Shown here piece after piece: positions 1,856-16,318 of a DNA stretch of 40,284 bases. This DNA is from Bacteroidales bacterium (GTDB taxonomy: Bacteria; Bacteroidota; Bacteroidia; Bacteroidales; CAIWKO01): contig DAOORA010000037.1 in assembly GCA_035389045.1 (NCBI GenBank), forward strand, positions 1-40,284. The letters run 5' to 3'. Position 1 is the first letter of the stretch, and each line of letters opens with the position of its first letter. The notes under the pieces are model-generated. The model saw nothing but the letters and a program-made list of their open reading frames with translations, was not told the DNA's origin and made no database searches. The position numbers and the translations under genes are program-made.

Positions 1856-3049
1856 TTATTTATTGATTATCAAATACTTATTATAGCCAATTTTATTAAA
1901 GGCATCACTCTTCAGCGCTTTTTCCACTTCATTTGTTTTGCCTGTATAGGGATACAAAACAGTTCCTCTTTTTAAGAGTGTCAGGTTTTCACCACTTTTG
2001 GTCACCCCCCCTTTTTGAAAGGCGACATAATTCACAGCATTTTTCTGCTGTGTAACAATATTTTGAAAATTAACATCATCATTGATTGTAAACAGGCAGT
2101 TTTCAATAACATCATTGGAACAAAAACAATTGCTCGTAAGTATAATCACATCATGCTCTCTACAATGATTTTCCTGAAAAGTTTTTTTATCAAAAATATT
2201 ATCAAAACTTTTTTCTTTTGCATCCGTAACTTCCATTTTAAAAAAACTGCGTTCGCCACCCATGGTGATAATTCTTGAACCAAACTCTTTGTCGTTTGGC
2301 AAGTCTAAATCTACAAAAAAAGCAAAGCAAAAATCGTTAGCCAGTTTGTAAAACACTTGTTTATAAAAATCGCCTTTATCATCACGTCTTTTTACTATTT
2401 CCCGATGAATACCAACCTGTTCATGTTTAATAAAAAACCCATTATCAAATCCATGAGTATCTTCGAATTCCAAAGGATCAACGTAATCCCATTGGCGTAA
2501 ATTTTTTCCATCACTGCTTACCCATAGCGAAACTAACCCATATTTCGGGTCGAATGGTTTATTATTTACAAGTAAAGACGGAATGCTTTTTGAATAATTT
2601 TCGAAAATGACAAAATCATTAGGTGCATTAAAGAAATCAACAATGACAGGTGCGATTTTCATATCCATTACCGCGCAATTATTGACTTTTTCATCTTTTT
2701 CCAATCCGTAATTTGCCCAATCAAGAGTCTGTGTTGTATAGTGTATATTTCCATCTGAAATAAAAACCGGGGAAATATTCTTAATAGCTCCAAAATCATC
2801 GACGAATTTATTATTTAGTTTCTGGAAACTATCTTCGCCAATTAGTAATTTCCATTCTTTTGCTATCGGGTCCGTACCTATCAAATTATTTTGAATCAGT
2901 AGTTCATGCCTGAGCATACCTAAAAGAGTAGTTTGCTGCGGTAAATAATTGGAACGGGCGAAGTAGTTTATTTTGCCATCGCCAAAAGTATTTTCTCCAC
3001 CAAAAAAGTATGGAGTCAATGGTTTTAAAGTGATTAGAATTTTATTCAT
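1856..3049 (-). CDS. cmr3: Type III-B Cmr3 (Cas5 group)
   Basis: LKPLTPYFFGGE, SNYLPQQTTLLGMLR, MGGERS and C-terminal IGYN motifs. Overlaps the cas10 stop; alternative start at 3058. Confidence 0.92.
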   Translation of the reverse strand: MNKILITLKPLTPYFFGGENTFGDGKINYFARSNYLPQQTTLLGMLRHELLIQNNLIGTDPIAKEWKLLIGEDSFQKLNNKFVDDFGAIKNISPVFISDGNIHYTTQTLDWANYGLEKDEKVNNCAVMDMKIAPVIVDFFNAPNDFVIFENYSKSIPSLLVNNKPFDPKYGLVSLWVSSDGKNLRQWDYVDPLEFEDTHGFDNGFFIKHEQVGIHREIVKRRDDKGDFYKQVFYKLANDFCFAFFVDLDLPNDKEFGSRIITMGGERSFFKMEVTDAKEKSFDNIFDKKTFQENHCREHDVIILTSNCFCSNDVIENCLFTINDDVNFQNIVTQQKNAVNYVAFQKGGVTKSGENLTLLKRGTVLYPYTGKTNEVEKALKSDAFNKIGYNKYLIINK

Positions 3050-4718
3050 GATTGTCATTTGCGTTTAAAAATTGAACAAATCTGAGGCAACTGTAAATTC
3101 TCGAAATCCTTTTATCTTCATGATTTTCGTCAACGGGTTTTTCATGGGCAAACCACGAAAATGTTTCGTGAATGATGTGTCTTACTGCCTCAAAAAATGC
3201 CTGATAATTTTTGTGTGATGCCTCATTGAAGTTTTCGTCAAAAAAGTATTTCAATTTATTCACATCATTTGCAATTTCAATTATTATTTTTTTCTGGTTA
3301 TTGATTTTGAACATAACAGAATTTAGAAAATTCTCATCCTTGCCCTTACTTTCGGTGCATAAATTCAGAAAGTAATAATACAATGGTGTATTTTGTGTGA
3401 AGCCAAAATCTAATGATTGCCCTGAATGTTTCTCCAGTTTCAGAGCAATGTAGTTTTTGCATGGCTGTTTTTTTGCATTATAAAACAATAGTTCGTAGCT
3501 CTCTGCAAGAATTTCATTCATCGGTTTCTTATAATACCCGACAGACAAACCAAAACTAAGGGAAACCGTTTTATCTTTCATATATTTGTTGACAATGGGC
3601 GCTAATTTTTCTTTAAACATAAAATTCAATCTGGTCATCAGAAAAAACACATTGTTGCCATTTACCCTATATTTTTCATTCTTCTCAGGAGGAAAAAGCT
3701 CCCGAAAATCTAAACCCTCAAATTCATATTTATCATTGGTTAATGGTGCAAAAAACAAGAGGTCGTCACCGCCCATATAAATTGGGAATGCTCCGTATTT
3801 TTTCAATTCACCGGCTGCACTGCTGACAAATTCGTTTAACGCATTAGAAAAGCTCATGATATCACCATTGTTTTTTTCAATTTCTCCGATGAGTGAACCT
3901 ACATTATCCCCATCTGCCTGAACAATGGTAAAATATTTGTGTCGAAATTTAAAATTGTCTTTAAATTCCGATTTCAATGCATTAATAATATTATCTTCAA
4001 TTTGTTCATCCTCTTTGTTTTGAGCTAATTGCTCAAAGTTAATTTCCCCATTTGACGTTTTAAGGTACTGAATACCTAAAGCGTTCCAATATTCAGAAGG
4101 GTGTTGTTTCTCAAGTTCTGTTGTAGAAATTTCAGGTATAGATTTAAACCGTTTAAATGTTTTAGATTTTGCACCACTGTATTTGACCAAAATTGGGGGT
4201 AAAATTTCATCATCGCCATATCCTTTTTCATATAAATTTTGAAAAAATTCAGGACTAACACTTTGGGTATTCCAATAATAATTAATATCAAATGTCTTGA
4301 TGCTGAAATACTTCTTTGAGAGTTCCAAACCATCCAATATTACATTTAACGACTTAATAGGATTGCATGCAATCTCTTTTTGTACAACATATATTTGAAA
4401 ATATGCTAATTCGTTCGGATTATACCCTGTCGCCAAACTAAATTCTTTAAGTGCAATTTCTTTATTATTGTTAATTTCAGTCTCTGTCATGGCTTTGTTG
4501 AGCTTGATATAACAACGGTCTGGATATACCCCAGCTCCATGCAGTGGTAATTTAACATTAGGACTTGGCGAAAGCAATTCCCCATGCTTACTGAATTCAT
4601 CAATAAGGTATTTCATTAAAAGCGAAAAACTGAAACTAGCACTCCAAAGCTCCCGGGTTTTGCGGGCTTGGGACATAGTTTTGTAGATAGGTCCGATGGT
4701 GAGGGCGAGGTATTTCAT
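3042..4718 (-). CDS. cas10: Type III-B Cas10/Cmr2, no HD nuclease domain, intact cyclase palm
   Basis: Starts directly at LTIGPIYKTMSQARKTRELWSAS (no HD domain); QADGDNVG and YMGGDD (3762-3773) palm motifs; 558 aa. Confidence 0.95.
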   Translation of the reverse strand: MKYLALTIGPIYKTMSQARKTRELWSASFSFSLLMKYLIDEFSKHGELLSPSPNVKLPLHGAGVYPDRCYIKLNKAMTETEINNNKEIALKEFSLATGYNPNELAYFQIYVVQKEIACNPIKSLNVILDGLELSKKYFSIKTFDINYYWNTQSVSPEFFQNLYEKGYGDDEILPPILVKYSGAKSKTFKRFKSIPEISTTELEKQHPSEYWNALGIQYLKTSNGEINFEQLAQNKEDEQIEDNIINALKSEFKDNFKFRHKYFTIVQADGDNVGSLIGEIEKNNGDIMSFSNALNEFVSSAAGELKKYGAFPIYMGGDDLLFFAPLTNDKYEFEGLDFRELFPPEKNEKYRVNGNNVFFLMTRLNFMFKEKLAPIVNKYMKDKTVSLSFGLSVGYYKKPMNEILAESYELLFYNAKKQPCKNYIALKLEKHSGQSLDFGFTQNTPLYYYFLNLCTESKGKDENFLNSVMFKINNQKKIIIEIANDVNKLKYFFDENFNEASHKNYQAFFEAVRHIIHETFSWFAHEKPVDENHEDKRISRIYSCLRFVQFLNANDNHE

Positions 4719-4721
4719 AAC

Positions 4722-6017
4722 TTATATTTTTGTCCAGGTGGAATTTAAAGAATTTATCAAAAAAGCATCAATGTCAAAACTACTTGGGATGTCTATATTA
4801 AATGAATGAGGTGTGCCTCCATTTTTTAATTTTAAGGTAATAGTTACCGTTTTGCCATAAATTGCAACAAAGGAGTTGTTTGGTATTAAATAAATATCAT
4901 TATTTATTACTTTAAATGTTATAGGGGACTGAAATCTTTCTAATCCTACAGCAGAGCCATCTATTTTTGCAACCATTTTATTTCCCCTATCAACCGGATT
5001 GCCAACCTGGAATTCAATTTGCTCTGCTAAACCTAATAAAGCCCGAATATATTGGTAGTTATTTGTTTGCTTATCAGTAAAACTATTGTAGTCACTACCT
5101 GTAGCATCAACAATATCAATCGGTTCATTTCTTTTGGTTAAATCAATACCATAAAATTTTGCTGCTTTGTTGGAGTTGAATTCTTGTTTTATTTTTCTCT
5201 TTTCCCATCTTATGGGGTTGGGTAGGTTTACGAAATATTCAAATAATTTTGATTTATTATATACACCATGGTTTATACCACTTTTTAAAAGTTGATATTC
5301 TTCCTTTATTATTTTAAAAATTGTGTTTATTCTAGTGTTGGCATTCCCATTAATACTTTTCTTAAAAGTGCCGGGGGGAAACATCCTCGTATTAATTTCT
5401 TGAGCAACACCATTCATTTTTGAAATAGTAAACGAGCCAAATCCTTTATTTTGCCTAGTTCCGAAATTTGTTTGAAGAAAGAATGAAACAATATGTTTTT
5501 CAATTTCACCTGAAATTTCCTTTGATAATGTTATAATTTCCAAACTAATACCACTATTACTTTGTTTTGCAAGTGCAACTTCATTAAGTTTGCTTCTAGT
5601 TCTATCAATCGCATTTTGATTAAATTTAATCTTATCTTCGTTTGCAAAGTAAAGAGTTGGAGCTATAATATTATTTATATTAATACTAAGTGAAGTGGCA
5701 ATAGCAATCTTCTTTTCAGGATTATTTTGTTCAAGTGCGAGAGGCAAAAATAAGGTTTCATCATTATTTTTTTCTTGAATCTTCATTTTATAATTCAAAG
5801 CCGGATGCTCTCCATTACCAACCAACCATTTTTTCCATTCGGGATTTTCTTTAAATTTATCGAATGCTGACTTTCCTTTTATTCCCGTCAATTTCTCAAT
5901 AATAAACCTATCCAGTTTTGGTTTTACTTCGGTTGCTCTTAGGGTAGCCCCATCCTGCTCGTGCTGGAAGTGGATAATAGGCGTGTGCTGTTTTAATGTA
6001 AAATTGATTGTGTACAT
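4722..6017 (-). CDS. cmr1: Type III-B RAMP Cmr1 (Bacteroidota type)
   Basis: LKQHTPIIHFQ..GATLRATEVKPKLDRFI, NFGTRQNKGFGSF, RALLGLA, RFQSPITFK; directly upstream of cas10. Confidence 0.88.
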   Translation of the reverse strand: MYTINFTLKQHTPIIHFQHEQDGATLRATEVKPKLDRFIIEKLTGIKGKSAFDKFKENPEWKKWLVGNGEHPALNYKMKIQEKNNDETLFLPLALEQNNPEKKIAIATSLSININNIIAPTLYFANEDKIKFNQNAIDRTRSKLNEVALAKQSNSGISLEIITLSKEISGEIEKHIVSFFLQTNFGTRQNKGFGSFTISKMNGVAQEINTRMFPPGTFKKSINGNANTRINTIFKIIKEEYQLLKSGINHGVYNKSKLFEYFVNLPNPIRWEKRKIKQEFNSNKAAKFYGIDLTKRNEPIDIVDATGSDYNSFTDKQTNNYQYIRALLGLAEQIEFQVGNPVDRGNKMVAKIDGSAVGLERFQSPITFKVINNDIYLIPNNSFVAIYGKTVTITLKLKNGGTPHSFNIDIPSSFDIDAFLINSLNSTWTKI

Positions 6018-6022
6018 AGCTG

Positions 6023-6625
6023 TTATTGGTTTTCAGTTTGAGTACCTGTATTGTTTTCTTTTTTATTTTTTTCTGTTGGTTTTTTTTCAAGAATTTCTTT
6101 TAAAATATTGGTGTCTATTTTCTCTTCCTGCACCTCCACTTTTTTATCGCCTTCTCCGGTTATTGTTTTGGTTTTAACCTTTGCCAATTCAAGCATTTTG
6201 GCATAATCGGCAAAAGCGGTTCGATTTTCTTCGTAGTCTTGCCTTCTCTTTTTCTCTTCATCCGAAATCTCGTTTTTCGAACCGTTTTCTGTTGGGGTTT
6301 CCTGCCGGCAATTTTCCCGGCAATAAAATGCAAACTGAATCTGCTGGTATATGTTCATCACCAAAATAACAACACCGCCGACCAATAGCAAAATCAATGC
6401 AGCGCAAAATAAAATTTGTACTACACCAGCACTTATAATCTTATCAAAGGAATAAACTGACCCAGCCTTCACTACCACCGTGCTTACATAGTCGCCAATG
6501 CACTTATTAAAACAACAAACCAAAACAAACCCCAGCAATGCTAATACAATTAATATATATGCATGCCATGCAAGACAGGGAAATTTGTGGTATTTATATT
6601 GTTTACCATTTGTTTTATCGTCCAT
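6023..6625 (-). CDS. Hypothetical membrane protein, two N-terminal TM segments and a charged C-terminal tail
   Basis: Hydrophobic runs AYILIVLALLGFVLVCCF and VVQILFCAALILLLVGGVVILVM, then a K/E-rich region. Its stop is 5 nt before the cmr1 start. Confidence 0.7.
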   Translation of the reverse strand: MDDKTNGKQYKYHKFPCLAWHAYILIVLALLGFVLVCCFNKCIGDYVSTVVVKAGSVYSFDKIISAGVVQILFCAALILLLVGGVVILVMNIYQQIQFAFYCRENCRQETPTENGSKNEISDEEKKRRQDYEENRTAFADYAKMLELAKVKTKTITGEGDKKVEVQEEKIDTNILKEILEKKPTEKNKKENNTGTQTENQ

Positions 6626-6718
6626 TTACAATTTTTTTTCAAAAATAAAAATTAAAACTATATACAAATTATTTTTTAATAAAAAAACTTATTAACTATT
6701 TAAATGTATAAAGATTAG

Positions 6719-8464
6719 CTATTTAACTGTATAAAAACAAATGGCAGAAATCAGAGTGAGTATAACGACAAGCAAAGAAATCAGGATAATACCGGTTTTC
6801 TTCAACCTGGTTCCGGCCTGAATTGATTTTCCTCTCAAAATAAGATAAAAAATACCCGCGCTCATAAACATGGCCGGCGTCACCAACCATAAAGTCCATA
6901 AATTCACTTCAAAACCAGGTTTTGAAATATTAAACATATTCATGCCGAAAAAGGATGCAATAAAAGAGGGTATCACAAATAAAGCCCCGATAATAGTCAA
7001 CAGCGCAATATTTTTGTTTTGCTTTTCCTCTTCCACCAGATTAACATAGTTATGCAGCTCACTAATCTCTCCATCCAGATCATGAACGTGCCCTTTAATA
7101 TTCATAACCTCCTGCATCAGGTTATAGAGTTCAATTCCCTGCTCCTGAGCCGTAATTTCACGAAAATATATTTTGTTCACAAACCGCAGGTACTGCTTAT
7201 ACAGGCTGCTGACTTTGCCGGGTAAATACTTACTTTCTTTATCCTTCATGGCCGATATGGCCGTTACTTCATCGGAGAACCGCAAAACGCAGGCTCGTTG
7301 AAGCAGGCATAATTCGGTCATTTTATAATACATGGTCTGCACATGATTGAGCAGGAAGGCAGAATTATATTCTTTGAGTTTTTCCAAAGATGAAGTAAGG
7401 CATACAAAGGAATATCTGGAAACACCGAAAATAGTACCAAAATTCAACCATCGCACATTGGTGTGTTTTTCCAGAAATTGTGATGACATCTTGCTGTTCT
7501 GGCAAGTCATCATGCCGCTTCCGTCAACAAAAATATACTTATACAACCATTCATTGGTTAGATATGCCGGCGAGGTCATATCATATTTACCATCCTTTTG
7601 GGGAGGAATTAAATTGCCGGACAATTCGTCATTTCCATACCAGCAAATAACAAACATTCTGTCGTCGAGCAAGGGTTCTATGTTAATCTTCGTTGATCCG
7701 TTATCTGCATCCATTTTGTTATGAGCCAGGGGTACCTGATTAAACAAGCTATCCATAAATGCCGGCAGCCTGAGCACTCCCTGCCTGAAATAAGCGGGAT
7801 CGGTATACACTGAGAAATCTTCTATGCCTGTAATGCTTATTTCGATTTCATCGGCAAGTTCAGCATTCTTTACAGCAGTCAATCCCTTTGTAAAATCAAC
7901 ATAATCATACTGTTCAGGACTGCCGGTTACACCCCGGTCCATGCCAAAAAAAGGAGGAAAAAGCCGCCTGCCATGCTGGTTAATGTTCAGAATATCATCG
8001 GGGCTGGCCTGATCTGCATTACGGTTGTTAAGATGAAACGATAACACACCCACGCCCGTATTGTACAAATGCAGCAATATGGAGTCGATTAGCAGATGAT
8101 AGGTTTTTACGACTCCCTGCTTGTTTAGCCTAATAGAGTAAACCGCCTCATCCATTTTAATATCATAACTGAAATGTGCAATAAATTGCTCATCTGCTTT
8201 TTCCCGGCTAATCTCCGGCACCTTTTTGACGTCGTACATTGCCTGCCTGACAAAGTCATAAAAATAGTTGTATTCGTTATAGTTCAACACTGTATCGGGT
8301 ACAAACTGATTTTGTTTCCAGGGTGTTTTATCCAAAAAAGAAACAAAATCCTTCAGATTGGTTTTTTCTTCAAAGTTTTTACTAACGTAGTTTTTTCCGG
8401 TATAACTCCATTGAAATGGAAATAAAAATACGTGATAACTGTACAGTTCACATGGTTGATTCAT
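6719..8464 (-). CDS. corA: CRISPR-associated CorA-family membrane effector
   Basis: Large N-terminal soluble domain (YSYHVFLFPF, DDRMFV, RW..FGT.FGVSRYSF, EITAQEQGIELY) and C-terminal TM helices with the CorA GMN motif (ASFFGMN); adjacent to cmr genes. Confidence 0.9.
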   Translation of the reverse strand: MNQPCELYSYHVFLFPFQWSYTGKNYVSKNFEEKTNLKDFVSFLDKTPWKQNQFVPDTVLNYNEYNYFYDFVRQAMYDVKKVPEISREKADEQFIAHFSYDIKMDEAVYSIRLNKQGVVKTYHLLIDSILLHLYNTGVGVLSFHLNNRNADQASPDDILNINQHGRRLFPPFFGMDRGVTGSPEQYDYVDFTKGLTAVKNAELADEIEISITGIEDFSVYTDPAYFRQGVLRLPAFMDSLFNQVPLAHNKMDADNGSTKINIEPLLDDRMFVICWYGNDELSGNLIPPQKDGKYDMTSPAYLTNEWLYKYIFVDGSGMMTCQNSKMSSQFLEKHTNVRWLNFGTIFGVSRYSFVCLTSSLEKLKEYNSAFLLNHVQTMYYKMTELCLLQRACVLRFSDEVTAISAMKDKESKYLPGKVSSLYKQYLRFVNKIYFREITAQEQGIELYNLMQEVMNIKGHVHDLDGEISELHNYVNLVEEEKQNKNIALLTIIGALFVIPSFIASFFGMNMFNISKPGFEVNLWTLWLVTPAMFMSAGIFYLILRGKSIQAGTRLKKTGIILISLLVVILTLISAICFYTVK

Positions 8465-8475
8465 GGTTGTAATTT

Positions 8476-9222
8476 TTATTTGATTATTTCTATAATTTCA
8501 TTAACATTTGTGTATTCTGCCCTGATTCCAAAAAAGCCATCCTCTCCTCCTCCATACCATGCGTTTTTCGCCGTTACTAATTCATGAAAATGCAGGGCAA
8601 ATTTATCAGTTCCTTCTCCGTAGTAGCAATAATTGGTTTCGTTATAAATCAAAAGCTTTTGGAAAGGAAACAAGCGGTCGGTGATGGTCGAAAAAAAGCT
8701 GGTTAAAGATCTCACCACAGTAATGCCATTTTCCACTTGCATATTTTCCCTTATTGACTTTTCAGCTAGTTTTTCATCAAGAGGTTTGGCTCCCTGCGCT
8801 TTGCGGTCGGCTTTACGTATCCGTTCAATTTCCACTTTGCCTGCTCCGAGTTTTTGCATGGCAGGGATGTATCCCTTGTCATTGGCGGCAATAAGCATTT
8901 GCCTTTTGGAAAGTTTTATCTTCAGCAGGCTGGCAAGCTGTTCTATGGATGAATCATTATTACTGTTTTCGTTATGATGATCTATTTCAATATATTTCTT
9001 TGGATGGTCAATATCTATGATTAATTCTATACCAACAAATGTTTTATCATCATCAAAACAATCTTTATAAGAACTTAATTTTGCACCCCACGTCAAATTC
9101 CTGTCATAAAAATCAACTTCATTTTTTAGGTTTTTTCTTTCAAGAATATTCCTGATTTCGAGCATTTCCAGGTCATGCCCTCCCAAAAGAAAAATGCAGG
9201 ATAAGAGTTCTTTATCTTTCAT
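8476..9222 (-). CDS. nrn: NrN-like DHH-family phosphodiesterase (candidate signal-degrading enzyme)
   Basis: FLLGGHDLEM, LTWGAKLSSY, IEIDHH (8974-8982), SSIEQ, IAANDKGYIPAM; 11 nt upstream of corA, the usual nrn-corA arrangement. Confidence 0.82.
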   Translation of the reverse strand: MKDKELLSCIFLLGGHDLEMLEIRNILERKNLKNEVDFYDRNLTWGAKLSSYKDCFDDDKTFVGIELIIDIDHPKKYIEIDHHNENSNNDSSIEQLASLLKIKLSKRQMLIAANDKGYIPAMQKLGAGKVEIERIRKADRKAQGAKPLDEKLAEKSIRENMQVENGITVVRSLTSFFSTITDRLFPFQKLLIYNETNYCYYGEGTDKFALHFHELVTAKNAWYGGGEDGFFGIRAEYTNVNEIIEIIK

Positions 9223-9799
9223 TTTCCATCAAATATTTTATTACCTCCTCATTCCCCGAAATAATTCCCGAAACTTTCAGCTTTGTATTGATCTTTTCAG
9301 CCACGAATTGCCAGTAAAGTCGCTGATATTTTGAGATATCATCATAATCGGAGTTTTCCTGATAATTGCTCAAGGTACGCCTCACTCTTTTAATATTTTC
9401 ATCAATAAGGTCGTAAAAAAGATCGGTTACTTCTTTGCTGTTCATCAGATAAATAGTCTTATCCAAGCCATACATACCGACTGTTATTGAAGGATAATGA
9501 CCGTTACGACACACCAGTTTGATATCATCAAAACGAATTCTCAATTGGTATGATTCTGATGATTCAAGCAAAATCAATAATAACTCCCAGTCGAAATCAG
9601 ATTCGTTGATATCGCCGGGAAGCCTGTATCGAAATGCAGGTAAAGGCTCAACCCTTTTTTTATACCAGGGGTGATTTTCAATTTTATTCTCTTCAACAAT
9701 AGTAAATTCATTAATATATGACAGACATTGCTCTTCATTTTTCCTGCGCCAATCGGTAAACACTTCTTCGAAAGAATATTTATGTTCTGCTGTTTTCAT
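9212..9799 (-). CDS. Hypothetical soluble protein, translationally coupled between the ClpX paralogue and nrn
   Basis: 195-aa ORF with ATGA overlap with the upstream gene (9796-9799) and 11-nt overlap with nrn. No motif recognised. Confidence 0.75.
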   Translation of the reverse strand: MKTAEHKYSFEEVFTDWRRKNEEQCLSYINEFTIVEENKIENHPWYKKRVEPLPAFRYRLPGDINESDFDWELLLILLESSESYQLRIRFDDIKLVCRNGHYPSITVGMYGLDKTIYLMNSKEVTDLFYDLIDENIKRVRRTLSNYQENSDYDDISKYQRLYWQFVAEKINTKLKVSGIISGNEEVIKYLMENER

Positions 9800-11256
9800 T
9801 TATTAAAGGTTTTAATAAAATCATCTTTTGTTATATGAAAAGTTTCCATGATGATATTTGGAGACTGAAATAATGCCTCTGAAAGTAATTTCTGAAGTAT
9901 TCCACGAATAGCACGAGCTCCCAGCTTAAGTTCAATCACCCTGTCAGCGATCATTTCGCACACATCATCGTCAACAATTAGTTTATCGTAATGTATCCAG
10001 AAAAAATTCTCATATGCATTCAAAAATGAATCCTGGGTGTTTTTAATTATTTCGATTATTTGTTGTTTGGTCAATATGTCCAATGCCAGGTAATAATTTA
10101 TTCGGCCCACGAGTTCCGGAATGATCCCAAAATCAATAAAATCCTGCGGGCTGACACTTTTGAGAATATTATCCGCCGAAGTTTCGTGACCAGCCATGGC
10201 CGATCTGAATCCAATGACAGTGGCATTCATGCGTTTTTCAATAATTCTCTCAATTCCCGCAAAACTACCGCTGAATATAAACATAAGGTTCTTTGTTTTA
10301 AACGCCATGCCTTCTGCATATCGGCCAAGATCCTGTTTTATCACTCTGTCAGCGCCCTCAATAAGTGACAGAAATTCCTGCTGCAAAGCAACACCCCCGA
10401 CATTGCCTTTATTTGTATTTTGTTCGCTGATCTTATCGAATTCATCAAAAAACACCACTCCATTCTCTGCGTCAAACTTTGTTCTTGCCTTTAAATACAA
10501 CAAGGTCAACGCATCTTCAATATTTGAACCGATATATCCTGAACTTACCATTTGTGCGCAATCGACTTTGACAAAAGGCACATCATACATTTCACACAGC
10601 GTTTTTATGATATGCGTTTTCCCGGAACCGGTTGGCCCCAATAACATGATATGCGGATCCGGCAGCAAAACATCGCCTGATCTGCGCGAAACATTTGTAA
10701 TATTATATATTTCCGGGATGATCCGCCTTGTCCTGATAAGATGCAGGTAAAAAGCAAAACTCATATGTTTTTTAGCTTCATCCTGCCCTTTAACAAATTT
10801 GCACAACTCTTTGTAAATGTCTTTTGGCTTTCTGAATGTCGTTAGATGTTGTTTTTTCAGCACCTCATCAGATTCAGAAAAATATATCCTGAAAATGTTG
10901 AAATAATCAGATTTCTCAACGTTACTCAGCTTTTTGAAATAGTTTTCCCAGGTAGTTAATTTTTCAATCGGTGATATGTGACTTTTATTCTTATCATAGA
11001 TTTTTTTACATACATCCACCTCCAGCAGCCACAATATTTCTTTTTTCAGATTAGCTTCCTCACTGATTTCTTTTTTCAGGGTATCGTAAATAGCCAAAAC
11101 TTCGGGCTGGCTTAATTTTGCAATAACCTGCATCAGGAAATATACATCTGAGCTTGTCAATGCCTGGGTGAAAAACAAACAACGGGCAAAATCGTTTTTA
11201 TCTTCAATAAAGTCAGGAATCTGTATAGCTTCAATACCAAAAAACATGTCACCCAT
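9796..11256 (-). CDS. ClpX-like AAA+ ATPase with an atypical N-terminal domain
   Basis: VKGQDEAKK, Walker A GPTGSGKT, pore loop GYIG, Walker B FFDEFDKI, IGF loop (TVIGFRS), PELVGR, LGARAIR. No C4 zinc-binding domain and no adjacent clpP. Confidence 0.9.
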   Translation of the reverse strand: MGDMFFGIEAIQIPDFIEDKNDFARCLFFTQALTSSDVYFLMQVIAKLSQPEVLAIYDTLKKEISEEANLKKEILWLLEVDVCKKIYDKNKSHISPIEKLTTWENYFKKLSNVEKSDYFNIFRIYFSESDEVLKKQHLTTFRKPKDIYKELCKFVKGQDEAKKHMSFAFYLHLIRTRRIIPEIYNITNVSRRSGDVLLPDPHIMLLGPTGSGKTHIIKTLCEMYDVPFVKVDCAQMVSSGYIGSNIEDALTLLYLKARTKFDAENGVVFFDEFDKISEQNTNKGNVGGVALQQEFLSLIEGADRVIKQDLGRYAEGMAFKTKNLMFIFSGSFAGIERIIEKRMNATVIGFRSAMAGHETSADNILKSVSPQDFIDFGIIPELVGRINYYLALDILTKQQIIEIIKNTQDSFLNAYENFFWIHYDKLIVDDDVCEMIADRVIELKLGARAIRGILQKLLSEALFQSPNIIMETFHITKDDFIKTFNK

Positions 11257-11299
11257 AAGAACAAATTTAAAAATTTATATAAAAATCATAAATTGTCAT

Positions 11300-11307
11300 C
11301 AAATATA
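11300..11307 (-). promoter_or_regulatory. Candidate Bacteroidota -7 promoter element for the clpX-like to cmr operon
   Basis: TATATTTG on the minus strand (TAnnTTTG consensus) about 45 nt upstream of the start. The region is AT-rich, so a chance match is possible. Confidence 0.35.
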
Positions 11308-11431
11308 CATATTTTTAACCCGTGAAATTTTTATAAAATAAATTTGTTAACAAGGAAAACATGAAAATGTTTCCCGGCGACCGTTACCATTAATCCACAA
11401 ATATCATACTTAATAATTAATTATATTCATT

Positions 11432-12694
11432 ATGCTTAAACAAGAATTTTTTACCAACATCGGGCTTCCCCTGGAGGAATTTTTGCGAAACCAGATTTAC
11501 AATGCCTTGCAGGGCGAAACTGTAGAGATCATTTTCAAAGAAGCCAAAGTCAGGAAAACTGAAAACTACTGGAAATACATGCTGGAAGGCCACAGCTTTA
11601 AAGTGGACAAAAATATCTCAAAAAAACTTTACACTCTTTTTAACTCCGTTAAAGAAAACCTCGGATATAAAGAAAAACTTGATTTTTATATTTCCAGCGA
11701 CTCCAGTGTCAATGCTTTTGCATTATCCAGTACCGAAGACGACGAGCCTAATATCATCAACATCAATTCTTCATTGCTGAAACTGATGAACGACGATGAA
11801 CTGAGATTCATCATAGGCCATGAGATCGGGCATCTGATAAATAAAAACGCCAACCTGAACAAACTCATCAATTTTGTATTTCCAACAAACTCGAATCTGC
11901 CCGGAGTGTTGATGAACAAGATACGCCTTTGGGAACAGTTATCGGAACTCATCGCCGACAGGTACGGTTTTCTGGCTAACCCAAGCCTGCCGGTATGTAT
12001 CTCGGCATTTTTCAAAATGTCTTCGGGCATGGATGCCAAAGTAGTGGATCTGGATATCAATGCTTTTATGACAGAAAACGAAAATCGTCTTGAATATTTC
12101 AGGAAAGAAAAGGGGCTGAACATTGCTTCGCATCCCATAAACCCCATCCGGATCAAAGCCATTGATTTGTTTTCGAAATCCGACAGGTTTGCCGGTGAAT
12201 CTGGAATAGGAAACTGGCTGACTGATGCCGACCTCGACAAACAAATGACAGAACTCACAGGGGTTCTGCTAAAGGTAAAAAACTCGGAGCTGGATTATCA
12301 TATTTCATATTTTGTGGCCGCTGCAGGCATCATTTGCTCCGGAATAGACGGCGAATTCAACGACCGTGAAGCGGAAATCATCATGCAGGCGCTTTCTGAT
12401 TTCAGCCTTTTTCCGGCAAATTTCTTCGAAGAAATTATTGAGAGTAAAAAAGTGTTTGAGACATTTAATTCATCTGTTAAAAACATACTGGAAATAAACC
12501 CCGCCGAAAAAGATAATTTGCTGGATTTTCTTATCAACCTTGTGATGGCTGATAAAAAAATCAAATCCGACGAACTGAAGTTTATTTTTGAGGTAGGTAC
12601 AGGTTTGCTGGGGTTTACCCGTAAAGAAGTAGCCCAGATCTTTGCATCGTTCATTCAGCGCAATTACATGCCCAGCATACACGATCTGGGTTGA
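11432..12694 (+). CDS. M48-family zinc metallopeptidase with C-terminal TerB-like domain
   Basis: VNAFA, HEIGH (HExxH), ELIADRYG, ASHP..IRI. C-terminal paired TerB-like motifs GIDGEFNDREAE and MADKKIKSDE. No signal peptide or clear TM segment. Confidence 0.82.
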   Translation: MLKQEFFTNIGLPLEEFLRNQIYNALQGETVEIIFKEAKVRKTENYWKYMLEGHSFKVDKNISKKLYTLFNSVKENLGYKEKLDFYISSDSSVNAFALSSTEDDEPNIININSSLLKLMNDDELRFIIGHEIGHLINKNANLNKLINFVFPTNSNLPGVLMNKIRLWEQLSELIADRYGFLANPSLPVCISAFFKMSSGMDAKVVDLDINAFMTENENRLEYFRKEKGLNIASHPINPIRIKAIDLFSKSDRFAGESGIGNWLTDADLDKQMTELTGVLLKVKNSELDYHISYFVAAAGIICSGIDGEFNDREAEIIMQALSDFSLFPANFFEEIIESKKVFETFNSSVKNILEINPAEKDNLLDFLINLVMADKKIKSDELKFIFEVGTGLLGFTRKEVAQIFASFIQRNYMPSIHDLG

Positions 12695-13405
12695 TCAATA
12701 CCGTTTCCTTCTCAGGCTAACCGAGGTCTTCCAAAGTTTTTCAAAAGTTGCCAGATAAGCATTTGCAACATCCGTGTCGGAGAGCACAACAATGTTCTCT
12801 CCGTTTTCCATGGCTGCAGTGCGGGTCCAGTTGTAGCTGCCGGTTATAGTGCGGACTTTGTCAATCACAACGAATTTGTTATGCATCAGCGCCGGACGGT
12901 TGTCTGTCCTGATAGAAATATTGGTTTCAGAAAGCCGGTGGATGTCCGAGCCTTCATCATAACATTTGTCATCATCGGTGATGATACGGATATGTATCCC
13001 ATTATTTTGCGCACTCATCAAAGCCTCTGAGATAAAGTTGTCACTGATAGTAAAAACACAGATATCCAGAGTTTTTTTGGCATCCAGTATTGCCTGGCGG
13101 ATACGTTTCCGGCAACCTTCACCCGGGCTGAAATAGACCTCAGGCTTTGCAGCAGCAACCGGTTCTCTCACACGTTCCAGAAGTTTCAGAGATTCTTCCA
13201 GCCAGCTAAGAACTTTCAATGGGTCACTGCCTGATATGACAGAAGCCGCCTTATCGAACATATAACTTCTTAAGGCTCCGTAATCGGAACCATGTAGTCT
13301 GGCGCCTTTAAGCAGCGCTAACATATCTTCTTTCTCCGTGCCGGATATGGTAAAAGTTTGAACTGTCCAGTCTATTAATGCATATAATTGCTCCCTGTTT
13401 TTCAT
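12695..13405 (-). CDS. Phospholipase D-superfamily (Nuc/Zucchini-like) protein, single HKD motif
   Basis: YFSPG, LDICVFTISD, MHNKFVVID..TITGSYNWT..A..NGEN, with a helical N-terminal extension. Confidence 0.9.
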   Translation of the reverse strand: MKNREQLYALIDWTVQTFTISGTEKEDMLALLKGARLHGSDYGALRSYMFDKAASVISGSDPLKVLSWLEESLKLLERVREPVAAAKPEVYFSPGEGCRKRIRQAILDAKKTLDICVFTISDNFISEALMSAQNNGIHIRIITDDDKCYDEGSDIHRLSETNISIRTDNRPALMHNKFVVIDKVRTITGSYNWTRTAAMENGENIVVLSDTDVANAYLATFEKLWKTSVSLRRKRY

Positions 13406-13676
13406 TGATCCCTTTCCGTTTGATTAAGAAATTGTTTTGATTTTATCTTTTAATATCTTTATGCGCCTTTTTTGCTGCAAATCGTTAGATTTTTCGACAT
13501 AGGGTAAACTATGTCTGCAAAATCTGCCTTGTTTCGCTAAAAAATCCATCATAAATCTTATGTAACATAAAATCAAAACAGTTTCTAAAATTCAGCGGAT
13601 AAAAATATTACAAAAATATTTATTTACAGAAAACTTAATCGTAGTTTTGAAAAAAATTCCTGCCATTGTTCAATTA

Positions 13677-14714
13677 ATGGAAACCATGTCCGGTAAAAAA
13701 TACATTGTCCATGGCAAGTGCCAGAAAGATGCTGACAAAAAAACTTGTGGCGATTTTCTGCTTTACAGGGAAATCAGCGATGAAGGTATCGTTGTGTTAG
13801 TAATGGCTGATGGAGTGGGTTCGCGGCATCACGACTTTATAGCTTCCAATAACGCCTGCAATGCTTTTGTTGATTCATTTTTAAACAATCAGTCGGGCAA
13901 TATGATTCAAAGATTTGAAACAGCTTTAAAGAAAGCCGACCATGAGGTTTCAAGTCCATTGGAGCCGGCATATCATGGTATGATGTCCGTTTTTTTGGCA
14001 GTGGTATGGAATACAAACGAGAATTATTTCTTATGGGATTGTATCGGGGATAGCAGGTTGTATAAATATTCAGCAGAAGGATTGATACAAATAAGCCTGG
14101 ATGGAAAGAAAGCAGTGAATATGCGCGACAAAAGCGGTAAACTGCTGATACAGGATGGCGTGCTGGTCATCAGGGAAGGTCTTACCAATGCTTTGGGATA
14201 TAATGGCGCCCGCATCTCAGTGAAAAGGCAGGATTTCCATGAAGGTGAATCTCTTGTCCTTTGTACTGATGGTATGTACGAAATTGATGATTTTGACGGA
14301 GCTATTACCGGATTTTTATCATCCGGTATTTCTGAAAAAAGATTAGAAAAATTCTTTTCTGCAAATAGGGATTATTTTAAAGATGATGCCAGCATGTTGA
14401 TATTGCAGAGAACCGATCAGCCGCAGAATTATGAACAAAAATATCAGGAAGTGATCCGTAATGGTTCGGATTACAGGCAATTCCGGATATTGCCACATTT
14501 GATAACAAATTATATACAACCGGAAATGCTCAGGCTTGTCAAAGAAAAAAATGAAACCGGCCTGAAAATATTTGCTGCTTATATAGCGGAACATAATTTG
14601 CTCTTAACCGAAGATTTCATCAACAAGGCAATACAGGAAATGAAAGCCACTGATTATATAAATCCTGACTTTTACCACTTGCTGATCAGACAGTTGAAAA
14701 AAATCAACTGGTAA
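13677..14714 (+). CDS. PP2C/PPM-family protein phosphatase with C-terminal helical extension
   Basis: CGD, MADGVGS, IGDSRLY, LTNALG, LCTDGM, DDASM motifs. ATG 13677 preferred over TTG 13647. Confidence 0.88.
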   Translation: METMSGKKYIVHGKCQKDADKKTCGDFLLYREISDEGIVVLVMADGVGSRHHDFIASNNACNAFVDSFLNNQSGNMIQRFETALKKADHEVSSPLEPAYHGMMSVFLAVVWNTNENYFLWDCIGDSRLYKYSAEGLIQISLDGKKAVNMRDKSGKLLIQDGVLVIREGLTNALGYNGARISVKRQDFHEGESLVLCTDGMYEIDDFDGAITGFLSSGISEKRLEKFFSANRDYFKDDASMLILQRTDQPQNYEQKYQEVIRNGSDYRQFRILPHLITNYIQPEMLRLVKEKNETGLKIFAAYIAEHNLLLTEDFINKAIQEMKATDYINPDFYHLLIRQLKKINW

Positions 14715-14928
14715 TTCCGAATTATTATAACTTAAGTTTCGCATAAAAAATAAAATTGACAAATATCAATCATTTGTGGATTGCAAAGAGATTAACACTA
14801 TGGAGAACAAATTTTTTACATATAGTCAAAAAGAATAAAACTACGGTAATTCAGAGCAGCTTCTCCTGAAACGAAAGTGGAAGGAGAAGATTGTCCCTGC
14901 CTGTCGGAGTGTCCGGCACGCCAAGCAG

Positions 14929-15025
14929 ACTTTGTGCGCCTTAGTGCAAACACTTTGTGCGCCTTAGTGGTAAAAAAACTTAACCACGAAGTCGCACTAA
15001 GTACTGTCACAAAGGGACACGAAGG
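14929..15025. repeat. REP-like imperfect palindrome with internal 18-bp direct repeat
   Basis: ACTTTGTGCGCCTTAGTG at 14929-14946 and 14952-14969, mirrored by CCACGAAG, CACTAAG, CACAAAG and CACGAAG on the right; lies between convergent genes. Confidence 0.7.
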
Positions 15026-15073
15026 AAGAAATAAAAATAAATTAAACATAAAAAAAACCAGGCGAAACTCAAG

Positions 15074-16318
15074 TTATAACTCTGTCACTTTTCTGGCCAT
15101 TTCTTTTAAACTTGAATCTTCCAACCCGGCAAAATATCCATAAGTTACTTTAATATCACTATGCTTGAAAGCATCACCGACCATGTCCATCGTGTAGCCA
15201 TCTCGCAGGCTTTTGGTCGCAAAACTGTGACGCGCCCAGTATGTACTTATGCCTTCAGGCAAATGTAATTTTTTTGCAAGATTTTTTATATGTTGATTAA
15301 TAAATCTCGTGAAGTTTCTTATCGCATGGTACTGTCGTTTTTCATCCCATCCGGGTTTAAGAATGCTGAATACATAATTGTTGACGCTGCGGGGTGAGGT
15401 GCCGTATTTTTCAATAACCCTGCGTGAAATATCTGTAAGGAATGCTTCTTGTTCTTCAATATCTTTTTTCGAGGTATTCTGGGTTTTGGATCTTAAATAA
15501 ACGATCTTATCATCGTAAATATTCCTCCATTTCAGTAATGCGATATCCTTTATGTTCATGCCGAATGTAGCAAAACTGAAGAACCAGAAATCTCTTGCTT
15601 TTTCCTGATAAGGATTTTTTACTTCCGCATTTAAAAGTATTCTAAGATGCTCTGTTGTCAGTGCCTTTTTCACTTTTTTGACCGATGGTCTGACGTATTT
15701 CTTTTTGCCAAAAGGATAAATATCTTTAGTGATATCGCTACTCTCGATGGCGAGGTTAAAAACGGCCTGAATTGCACGTGTATATATGGAAACGGTAGTT
15801 CTGCTTGATCCGTGATCCAGCATATAATCTTCAAAGTTCTGAAGCCATTTGGGCGTTATTTCAATAAAAGGAAGATACTCTATTTCTTTCCCGCTGTTTT
15901 CCCTGAGAAAATCCTTCATCTTTTTCTTACAGCATTCATATATGGTGTAAGTACTATACTGCTTATGAGCTTTAAATTCATCTATCCTCAGATCAAAGTA
16001 ATAAAACACATTTTTACCATCGCCTTTTGCTCTGAAAAATTTACGTTCAAAAACCTCAAAAGTGAAGGGACGAATGTCCTTCAGGACTTCATTGGCACGG
16101 CTGAGGACCTCTGTCATCAGCCGGTATTTATCCATGTTTTCGGCTTTAGGTTTTTTGACTCCCCACGTTTCATCGAACTCTTTTTGATTTTGGTCAATTT
16201 TGATATAATAGGCCTTGGATTTTTTTGTAATATCGTCATAAACCCGGAGTTTGACAGGATAGGTATTATCCCTCTTATTTCTTCTGGTATCAAGAATTAT
16301 AGAAGTATTAGCGCTCAT
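15074..16318 (-). CDS. Tyrosine recombinase / site-specific integrase (Bacteroidota type)
   Basis: N-terminal arm-binding-like LDTRR...YPVKLRV, SAM-like middle domain, GMNIKD, RSKT, TYWARHSFAT, KHSDIKVTYGY (catalytic Tyr); next to a tRNA fragment. Confidence 0.93.
   Translation of the reverse strand: MSANTSIILDTRRNKRDNTYPVKLRVYDDITKKSKAYYIKIDQNQKEFDETWGVKKPKAENMDKYRLMTEVLSRANEVLKDIRPFTFEVFERKFFRAKGDGKNVFYYFDLRIDEFKAHKQYSTYTIYECCKKKMKDFLRENSGKEIEYLPFIEITPKWLQNFEDYMLDHGSSRTTVSIYTRAIQAVFNLAIESSDITKDIYPFGKKKYVRPSVKKVKKALTTEHLRILLNAEVKNPYQEKARDFWFFSFATFGMNIKDIALLKWRNIYDDKIVYLRSKTQNTSKKDIEEQEAFLTDISRRVIEKYGTSPRSVNNYVFSILKPGWDEKRQYHAIRNFTRFINQHIKNLAKKLHLPEGISTYWARHSFATKSLRDGYTMDMVGDAFKHSDIKVTYGYFAGLEDSSLKEMARKVTEL

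Follow-up and report, generated by a model that had tools for sequence, protein, structure and literature searches.

The window analysed in this work, 40,284 nucleotides (nt) long, is one entire contig (DAOORA010000037.1) of the 4.46-Mb assembly GCA_035389045.1 of a Bacteroidales bacterium (96% complete, 135 contigs). Its minus strand carries a type III-B CRISPR system of the CorA/NrN kind, and two genes are joined to the 5′ end of its nrn-corA operon: clpX-like (9796–11256), which encodes a 486-amino-acid (aa) AAA+ paralogue of the ClpX clade, and hyp195 (9212–9799), which encodes a soluble, acidic protein of 195 aa from an unannotated family. These added genes, found so far in three lineages, are what is new on a CRISPR core of known kind; the variant is real, rare, and clade-specific. 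We consider it quite possible that the two genes form a portable module of unfoldase and partner which was captured by the operon in a small lineage of Bacteroidota, with an accessory role in immunity.

Organization and Conservation of the Gene Pair

The pair is followed on the same strand by nrn (8476–9222, 248 aa), which encodes a CorA-associated phosphodiesterase of the DHH family (PADLOC DHH_CorA, 4.7e-81; no Pfam match), and by corA (6719–8464, 581 aa), which encodes a membrane effector of the CorA family (PADLOC CorA, 6e-128; Pfam CorA, 7.6e-13). The junctions are an overlap of 4 nt between clpX-like and hyp195, an overlap of 11 nt between hyp195 and nrn, and a gap of 11 nt between nrn and corA; a gap of 93 nt then separates corA from a gene for a protein with two transmembrane segments (2-TM). 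A preliminary description of this DNA had reported the minus-strand run clpX-like, hyp195, nrn, corA, 2-TM, cmr1 to cmr6 and had found that the first four genes look co-translated. Coordinates and junctions were recomputed and agreed with it; the four genes are packed in the manner of one operon, and from 6000 to 11256 the minus strand has no terminator-like site.

Three lineages of Bacteroidota from sludge and digester metagenomes share the order clpX-like, hyp195, nrn, corA, with proteins 55–71% identical. The locus L003 (10.7 kb) keeps the order of the window, with identities of 72% for a PLD-family nuclease, 71% for an M48-type peptidase, 71% for the ClpX-like ATPase, 55% for the hyp195 homologue, 60% for NrN, 69% for CorA, and 40% for the 2-TM protein. 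In L004 the identities to the window are 55% (hyp195 homologue), 77% (NrN), and 93% (CorA). The hyp195 homologue of L004 is identical to the protein P0003, and we infer that P0003 and the third ClpX-like protein, P0005, are encoded on one contig, both records having a longest contig of 6358 nt. Among the three lineages the hyp195 homologues are about 55% identical in pairwise comparison and the ClpX-like proteins 67–71%. The frames of hyp195 and nrn overlap in all three loci (11 nt in the window, 11 nt in L004, and 14 or 26 nt in L003). A DNA run of a strain about 90–95% identical spans 6000–11500 with the order unchanged. Considering that metagenome contigs independent of each other repeat the order, at 55–93% protein identity, and that this strain does so too, the arrangement goes beyond chance.

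Outside these lineages, 400 further genomes sampled from the phylum yielded the NrN family in 3 cases (loci L029–L031), where the order is nrn(-corA)-cmr1-cas10-cmr3-6; in L031 corA was unmatched and nrn was fragmentary. No match to clpX-like, hyp195, 2-TM, M48, or PLD was found at E ≤ 1e-4 in the 14–20 kb around these three loci, and each of their genomes has one ClpX-like match. It was also possible to see in L029 (G277:C1, about 9906–12185) nrn and corA in one frame of 763 aa, an apparent NrN-CorA fusion.

The ClpX-Like ATPase

Residues 133–478 of the ATPase match ClpX in NCBIfam (1.8e-75). The scores were 254.4 bits against NF003745 (cut-off 359) and 231.5 against TIGR00382 (cut-off 370.75), so the equivalog thresholds for ClpX are not reached. 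The closest solved relative is ClpX 1um8_A (8.4e-50, residues 141–482), with HslU far behind (6.6e-22). By alignment with three housekeeping ClpX proteins of the phylum, the ATPase retains the Walker A motif GPTGSGKT, the Walker B residues D271-E272, and the pore-1 loop GYIG (240–243), and its VIGF loop (347–350) aligns with the VGY/IGF loop by which housekeeping ClpX docks on ClpP. The RKH loop is altered, from GRKH in the housekeeping proteins to GRYA, and the stretch from Walker B to the conserved QQ is 3 residues shorter. These matches and motifs are in line with the preliminary description, which had called the ATPase ClpX-like.

The main departure from ClpX lies at the N-terminus, where about 135 unrelated residues replace the cysteine-rich N-domain; in the paralogues this part measures about 115–135 aa. 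The housekeeping rows have in common two aligned N-terminal cysteines (...C.F...CGR...), which we take to belong to the C4 zinc finger. The N-domain of the window ATPase has one other relative only, P0005 (55% identity), in a set of 5.8 billion clustered proteins. No family, sequence, or structure match was obtained for it, and the ESM Atlas gave no usable feature match and only structure rows with a template modelling (TM) score of at most 0.41. A likeness to TerB/DUF533, suggested by the top Atlas row (TM 0.40), was discarded as a lead after a BLASTP comparison with the neighbouring M48-TerB protein (E 0.57).

The genome that contains the window has its own ClpX, 35% identical to the window ATPase and adjoining the sole ClpP. 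Among the 400 other genomes of the phylum, 388 have a ClpX-type match (E ≤ 1e-20), one each, except G373, with two weak matches (best 1.9e-22), neither of which was inspected. None of the 400 has an orthologue of the paralogue; the best match (3.1e-60) and its like are 31–39% identical in the AAA+ part only. A tree with 19 rows places the 7 paralogues on one side of a branch with 99/98 support and the 12 housekeeping ClpX proteins on the other; its branches are long, and a filter on open reading frames (ORFs) had removed 8 of 19 loci. Judged by its sequence, the ATPase is a paralogue of the ClpX clade and not an orthologue.

The hyp195 Protein and Its Family

The hyp195 protein has an isoelectric point (pI) of 5.2 and no transmembrane segment. 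It had no match in Pfam, NCBIfam, or PADLOC, and none among the sequences of the PDB at E ≤ 1. Its close relatives are only three (91, 55, and 54% identity), and the conserved motifs are PWY..V, DFDW.LLL.L..SS, and LF..LI.E. A profile search of 1.84 billion representatives returned 10 proteins at E ≤ 0.001, among them two at 7.7e-29 and 2.7e-19, four with a single domain at 3e-5 to 2e-4, and three with tandem copies: P0008 (544 aa, 3 copies), P0009 (533 aa, 3 copies), and P0010 (357 aa, 2 copies). The close and distant groups are homologous, with an hhalign probability of 97.9% (E 5.7e-13) over 144 columns. A pattern scan of genome contigs with the alignment of the close family gave 127 matches, none of them a relative; in an alignment of 10 rows, conservation was too low at every stretch for such a scan.

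A structural model was obtained with AlphaFold2 from an alignment of 57 rows, for which 44 of 75 locus ORFs were chosen and uncertain starts, fragments, and multidomain forms were excluded. Its predicted local distance difference test (pLDDT) value was 87.8 and its predicted TM score (pTM) 0.82; with an input of 4 sequences, the pLDDT was 36.4 and the model unusable. The predicted fold consists of helices at 10–50 and 71–80, three short strands, and, at the C-terminus, three long helices, the N-terminal part being alpha/beta. Foldseek returned no hit at E ≤ 0.001 for this model, either in the PDB (best 0.1) or in the viral BFVD (best 0.19); VIA-align found none with Z ≥ 5 among 48,161 chains (best Z 3.9), and the ESM Atlas gave no usable feature match and only structure rows with a TM score of at most 0.41. 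The family appears to be undescribed; an absent match is no proof of a new fold. The existence of proteins with two and three tandem copies suggests that the single-domain proteins may work as multimers.

Occurrence of Both Families outside CRISPR Loci

Scanning one genome per species with the distant hyp195 subfamily resulted in 77 loci, mostly of Patescibacteria (Absconditabacteria/SR1, Gracilibacteria, and “Peribacteria”), six being of Bacteroidota. When 14 proteins of the window were compared with these loci by tblastn (E ≤ 1e-5), the ClpX-like protein alone was found, and in two loci alone, L093 and L069, where its gene lies directly upstream of the hyp195 homologue on the same strand. 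In both a ClpX-like ATPase of 444 aa precedes the homologue, with an overlap of 17 nt in L093 and a gap of 46 nt in L069. The type of N-domain seen in these two ATPases is rare (5 clusters, 81–100% identity). Near both pairs there is a WG_beta_rep protein (L093, 10640–11749, 369 aa; L069, 6561–7703, 380 aa), a possible third member.

In Patescibacteria the hyp195-family gene stands alone. In 26 loci its upstream neighbour in the same orientation belongs to a cluster whose one scanned representative, by which each of these clusters was named, is a YidD-Fmt fusion; other common clusters are DNA polymerase III delta and a pilin-like protein. In Patescibacteria of the Gracilibacteria/Absconditabacteria type, relatives of hyp195 are near-universal and single-copy, and the tandem fusions hint at an oligomeric ring partner.

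Two further observations were made on this family. Proteins of 463–475 aa from two Flavobacteria (L089, 10001–11392; L104, 3428–4855) begin with the hyp195-family domain and end in DUF2971; the neighbours are a ThsB-type TIR protein and a SLATT protein in L104 and Kinase-PolyVal and Gln_deamidase_2 proteins in L089. When hyp195 homologues of Patescibacteria (L033–L108) are translated with genetic code 25, arginine is often found at conserved tryptophan columns, and every such arginine is CGA or CGG. The DFD[W] column has 35 CGA and 6 CGG against 22 TGG, and the Qx[W]Y column 21 CGA and 1 CGG against 39 TGG. This pattern fits the reassignment of CGA and CGG to tryptophan that Shulgina and Eddy in 2021 reportedly described in Absconditabacterales.

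Promoter Motifs and Transcription

The divergent intergenic region between clpX-like and the M48-TerB gene (11257–11431) holds a conserved block at about 11289–11345. These roughly 55 nt upstream of clpX-like are almost identical in the window and L003, and contain TATATTTG (11300–11307, minus strand), which fits TAnnTTTG, the −7 promoter motif of Bacteroidetes. The spacer of 93 nt between corA and the 2-TM gene (6626–6718, minus strand) is also conserved in L003 and holds TATTTTTG (6640–6647), which may be an internal promoter for 2-TM and cmr1 to cmr6, although the region is AT-rich and the candidate weak. No TAnnTTTG occurs on the minus strand within hyp195. Taking into account the motifs upstream of clpX-like and in the corA/2-TM spacer, two transcription units are plausible, clpX-like-hyp195-nrn-corA and 2-TM-cmr1-6.

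Scans for promoters of the sigma-70 type (54 found, 50.5 expected) and for terminators (9 found, 9.0 expected) were at chance level, and TAnnTTTG occurred 55 times over the whole window (49.3 expected); the promoter argument uses only where single sites lie and whether they are conserved. Short contigs 100% identical to 6232–6607, 6982–8321, and 9353–9507 were found in two activated-sludge metatranscriptome runs from different studies.

The CRISPR Core and the Neighbouring Genes

The preliminary description had also assigned the locus to the CorA/NrN type III-B systems with a Cas10 free of the HD domain. Our searches of Pfam, NCBIfam, and PADLOC and the GGDD motif lead to the same assignment, and by its sequence the locus is such a system. 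All six genes of the Cmr complex are present, closely packed on the minus strand: cmr1 (4722–6017), detected by PADLOC only (1.1e-78); cas10/cmr2 (3042–4718, 558 aa); and cmr3 (1856–3058), cmr4 (1093–1848), cmr5 (696–1121), and cmr6 (3–683, RAMP/Cmr6); the five other than cmr1 were recognised through Pfam and NCBIfam. Cmr4 and Cas10/Cmr2 are above the NCBIfam cut-offs. In Cas10, Pfam matches Cmr2_N at residues 3–53 and gives no HD match, and GGDD was read in the translation. The 2-TM gene (6023–6625, minus strand, 200 aa), between corA and cmr1 and found in this clade only, encodes hydrophobic segments at residues 14–45 and 60–97 and a charged C-terminal tail. The remaining junctions of the operon range from an overlap of 29 nt to a gap of 12 nt.

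The contig stops 2 nt past cmr6. No CRISPR array was found in the window, a simple k-mer script gave none in the 135 contigs of the assembly, and the 75 additional bases of L002 past cmr6 show none. On inspection, the k-mer candidates on contigs C6, C38, and C63 proved to be something other than CRISPR arrays; those on C44, C45, C59, and C84 were taken as simple repeats from their seed k-mers only. CRISPR arrays are frequently lost from assemblies.

Divergently from clpX-like, a gene on the plus strand (11432–12694) encodes a soluble zinc peptidase of the M48 type (HEIGH) that carries a TerB domain at its C-terminus. Next to it, on the minus strand, is the gene of the PLD-family nuclease (NucT/DrmC-like, 12695–13405). 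Both are conserved together with the block (window 11432–13405; L003 2538–4511), and they possibly form a system of their own or are partners of the ATPase. Beyond the PLD gene are a PP2C phosphatase and a tyrosine integrase (13647–16318, the integrase at 15074–16318). The guanine-cytosine (GC) content is 0.32–0.38 up to about 11 kb and 0.40–0.47 past 17 kb, and the remaining window has ordinary genes of Bacteroidota (a TonB receptor, proteins with tails of the type IX secretion system, and a two-component system). Considering the integrase, the low GC content, and the ordinary genes elsewhere, the CRISPR block looks like part of an acquired island. In L003 a nucleotidyltransferase/HEPN pair (9955–10700) follows the 2-TM gene at the place of cmr1 in the window, and the contig stops short of any point where a cmr gene might be seen.

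Proposed Function and Alternatives

According to our preferred reading, the module would consist of a ClpX-clade unfoldase with a noncanonical N-domain and of hyp195 as its small cognate partner, and would be inherited together with the operon. Transcription of the four genes would start at the promoter-like block conserved upstream of clpX-like, and nrn and corA, as essential effector genes, would be co-expressed with the pair. Such co-expression with CRISPR effector genes is likely, given the fused operon, the retained overlap, and the conservation of the promoter block. A hexamer of the ATPase would dock through its VIGF loop on the single ClpP of the host, and hyp195 would bind the ATPase as an adaptor or as a controlled substrate. 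In this way regulated unfolding or proteolysis would be added to immunity based on S-adenosylmethionine-adenosine monophosphate (SAM-AMP) and CorA; this is the likeliest activity, taking into account that the motor and the ClpP-docking motifs are kept and that the host has a single ClpP. Most plausibly, the module would limit or remove something toxic, be it CorA, the 2-TM protein, or a complex in its activated state, or would reset the system after an alarm.

The preliminary description had linked the pair to type III systems and had left a choice between an arm of proteolysis and a separate module fused into the operon. The link stands as far as the pair is kept beside nrn-corA in three lineages; it does not extend to the wider families, which occur mostly away from type III (0 of the 77 loci). 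Between the two options, a separate module of two genes is favoured, because the wider families mostly lie away from type III systems and the pairs of L069 and L093 have no CRISPR neighbours; nothing was found that shows turnover of CorA or Cmr.

A bolder form of the proposal is unlikely in our judgment. The pair would then be the first unfoldase arm of CRISPR signalling, a switch coupled to ClpP by which CorA (or the 2-TM protein) is degraded or reset, or one that is itself controlled by SAM-AMP, and hyp195 would stand for a class of AAA+ partners or adaptors that is new and has no structural match.

CorA/SAM-AMP immunity is a recent subject, and NrN is the established requirement when a cell is to survive or shut off a membrane-damaging effector. 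A lineage with an unfoldase pair on nrn-corA is a natural experiment for learning how CorA toxicity is controlled, and its ATPase would be the first member of the ClpX family to be linked with a CRISPR effector module. As for hyp195, its family is widespread in Patescibacteria with code 25 and is found beside a ClpX-like gene or fused to DUF2971 in Bacteroidota; its partner, once found, would be the first functional handle on it.

Several results weigh against the reading of a captured module with a role in immunity. Cmr, CorA, and NrN of Bacteroides fragilis alone gave immunity in Escherichia coli according to the main account of that system (PMC10600005). The pair was not found in the three canonical loci of the phylum, and CorA systems at large do not need it. 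The three lineages may derive from one capture event, conservation being then mere inheritance. By tblastn, CorA, NrN, and Cas10 were found in 0 of the 77 loci, in a comparison where hyp195 itself was unmatched and remote CorA or NrN could escape. Within the neighbourhoods of L093 and L069, both of Bacteroidota, no CRISPR or PADLOC system was recognised. Their ATPases keep a VGF loop, and their pore loop is GIVG or GIIG, with the tyrosine replaced; comparison of the N-domains of the two paralogue subgroups gave an hhalign probability of 3.7% (E 0.012). Most hyp-family genes in the 72 clustered loci have surroundings of housekeeping type and no ClpX-like gene within 10 kb. The contigs from the RNA libraries cover parts of 2-TM, corA, and hyp195, with none in clpX-like and no junction bridged, and as such libraries can contain DNA, these contigs are no proof of transcription or of co-transcription.

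The main rival, which we regard as possible and somewhat doubtful, is that the two genes make up a stress or defence module in their own right, maybe together with the M48-TerB and PLD genes, and are a bystander in a low-GC island bounded by the integrase, co-transcribed with the CRISPR genes and with no functional link to them. The distant pairs of L069 and L093 beside no CRISPR genes would be expected from it, as would the conservation of M48-TerB and PLD with the block in L003, the integrase (15074–16318), and the step in GC content (0.32–0.38 versus 0.40–0.47). The hyp-DUF2971 fusion beside ThsB-TIR and SLATT in L104 and weak PADLOC matches of the ATPase to defence ATPases of the IetA type (5.6e-09) also point to it. 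However, the overlap of hyp195 and nrn is kept in all three lineages despite a protein difference of about 45%, and nrn and corA have no promoter motif of their own inside hyp195. The values of L004 are also difficult for a bystander, with CorA 93% identical and the hyp195 homologue 55%, which means that the junction survived recombination or a very unequal divergence.

It is improbable, in our view, that the pair is a second, signal-controlled effector, in which hyp195 or the N-domain would sense SAM-AMP or a breakdown product and would turn the unfoldase and ClpP on host or phage targets. This possibility draws on analogy with CalpL and SAVED-CHAT, proteases activated by cyclic oligoadenylate (cOA) and named as type III protease effectors in a published account (PMC12255297), and on the place of the pair in an operon with a SAM-AMP effector and the degrading enzyme; the lack of any known function for hyp195 and the N-domain would leave room for a sensor. 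Against it, the pairs of L069 and L093 have neither Cas10 nor a recognisable signal synthase among the scanned neighbours, and no nucleotide-binding fold was recognised in hyp195.

Slightly less probable still is a remodeller independent of ClpP, by which the ATPase and hyp195 would assemble, activate, or disassemble the Cmr complex or the CorA oligomer in the manner of HORMA and Trip13. The HORMA-Trip13 pair controls the cyclases of the cyclic-oligonucleotide-based antiphage signalling system (CBASS), and here too an AAA+ gene adjoins a small partner gene in an immune operon with nucleotide signalling. The VIGF loop is nevertheless kept in the four aligned paralogues (4 of 4), which argues for docking on ClpP, and hyp195 gave no HORMA match in fold searches that were not exhaustive. 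Finally, it is very hard to believe that the ATPase is a plain duplicate of the housekeeping ClpX and lacks any role of its own: the 35% identity to the ClpX of the genome and the ClpX motifs would fit it, but the zinc-finger N-domain is replaced, GRKH has become GRYA, the score is under the equivalog cut-off, an orthologue is found in 0 of the 400 other genomes (the two weak matches of G373 being uninspected), and the gene is always accompanied by a hyp-family gene.

Comparison with Known Systems

The preliminary description had named no ClpX unfoldase known to belong to the CorA/NrN system, and the literature that we consulted is consistent with this. The term “ClpX” is absent from the main text of Chi et al. 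2023, Hoikkala et al. 2024, and the 2025 paper on a SAM-AMP lyase, and “Clp” from the main text of Shah et al. 2018, supplements aside. “AAA” and “ATPase” are absent from the first two, and the lyase paper has one “ATPase”, in a reference title on CBASS. Literature searches for ClpX or an unfoldase with CorA or type III CRISPR, and for ClpX-like proteins in anti-phage defence, gave nothing on the topic among the papers listed, as judged by titles and the start of abstracts.

ATPases have been reported as recurrent neighbours of type III cassettes. The AAA clusters of Shah et al. 2018 are Csx3-AAA fusions (clusters 35 and 67), a DUF499/SMC-like cluster (80), and a small AAA cluster (93), and in the passages on them in that work (PMC6546367) none is named Clp or linked to CorA. 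With CalpL-CalpT-CalpS and SAVED-CHAT, which are among the type III protease effectors listed in PMC12255297, the window shares the presence of accessory genes related to proteolysis in a type III locus. Those systems have SAVED sensors and not AAA+ proteins, whereas no SAVED or CARF domain was detected in the window by Pfam, NCBIfam, or PADLOC. The likeness to HORMA-Trip13 of CBASS consists in an AAA+ protein and a small partner within a nucleotide-signalling operon; the AAA+ clade is a different one, and hyp195 has no HORMA match.

In ClpXP, ClpX uses adaptors bound to its N-domain, such as SspB. The window ATPase shares with this system the AAA+ motifs, the loop of IGF type, and a small partner gene next to its own. 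The window pair differs in that the C4 zinc N-domain is absent, the RKH loop is altered, the score is below the cut-off, and the partner is unlike solved structures.

The closest comparison is with B. fragilis and its type III-B system, which signals by SAM-AMP, in which NrN degrades SAM-AMP (Chi et al. 2023, PMC10600005), and in which D70 and E151 of Cas10 are, in the main account, the conserved acidic acceptor residues for the binding of SAM (PMC10600005). Both it and the window have cmr1 to cmr6, a Cas10 with GGDD and no HD domain, and adjacent nrn and corA upstream of cmr1. The order nrn-corA-cmr1-cas10-cmr3-6 of the window matches the canonical loci L029–L031 as well, save for the insertion of the 2-TM gene. 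To the system of B. fragilis the window adds five conserved genes, clpX-like, hyp195, 2-TM, M48-TerB, and PLD.

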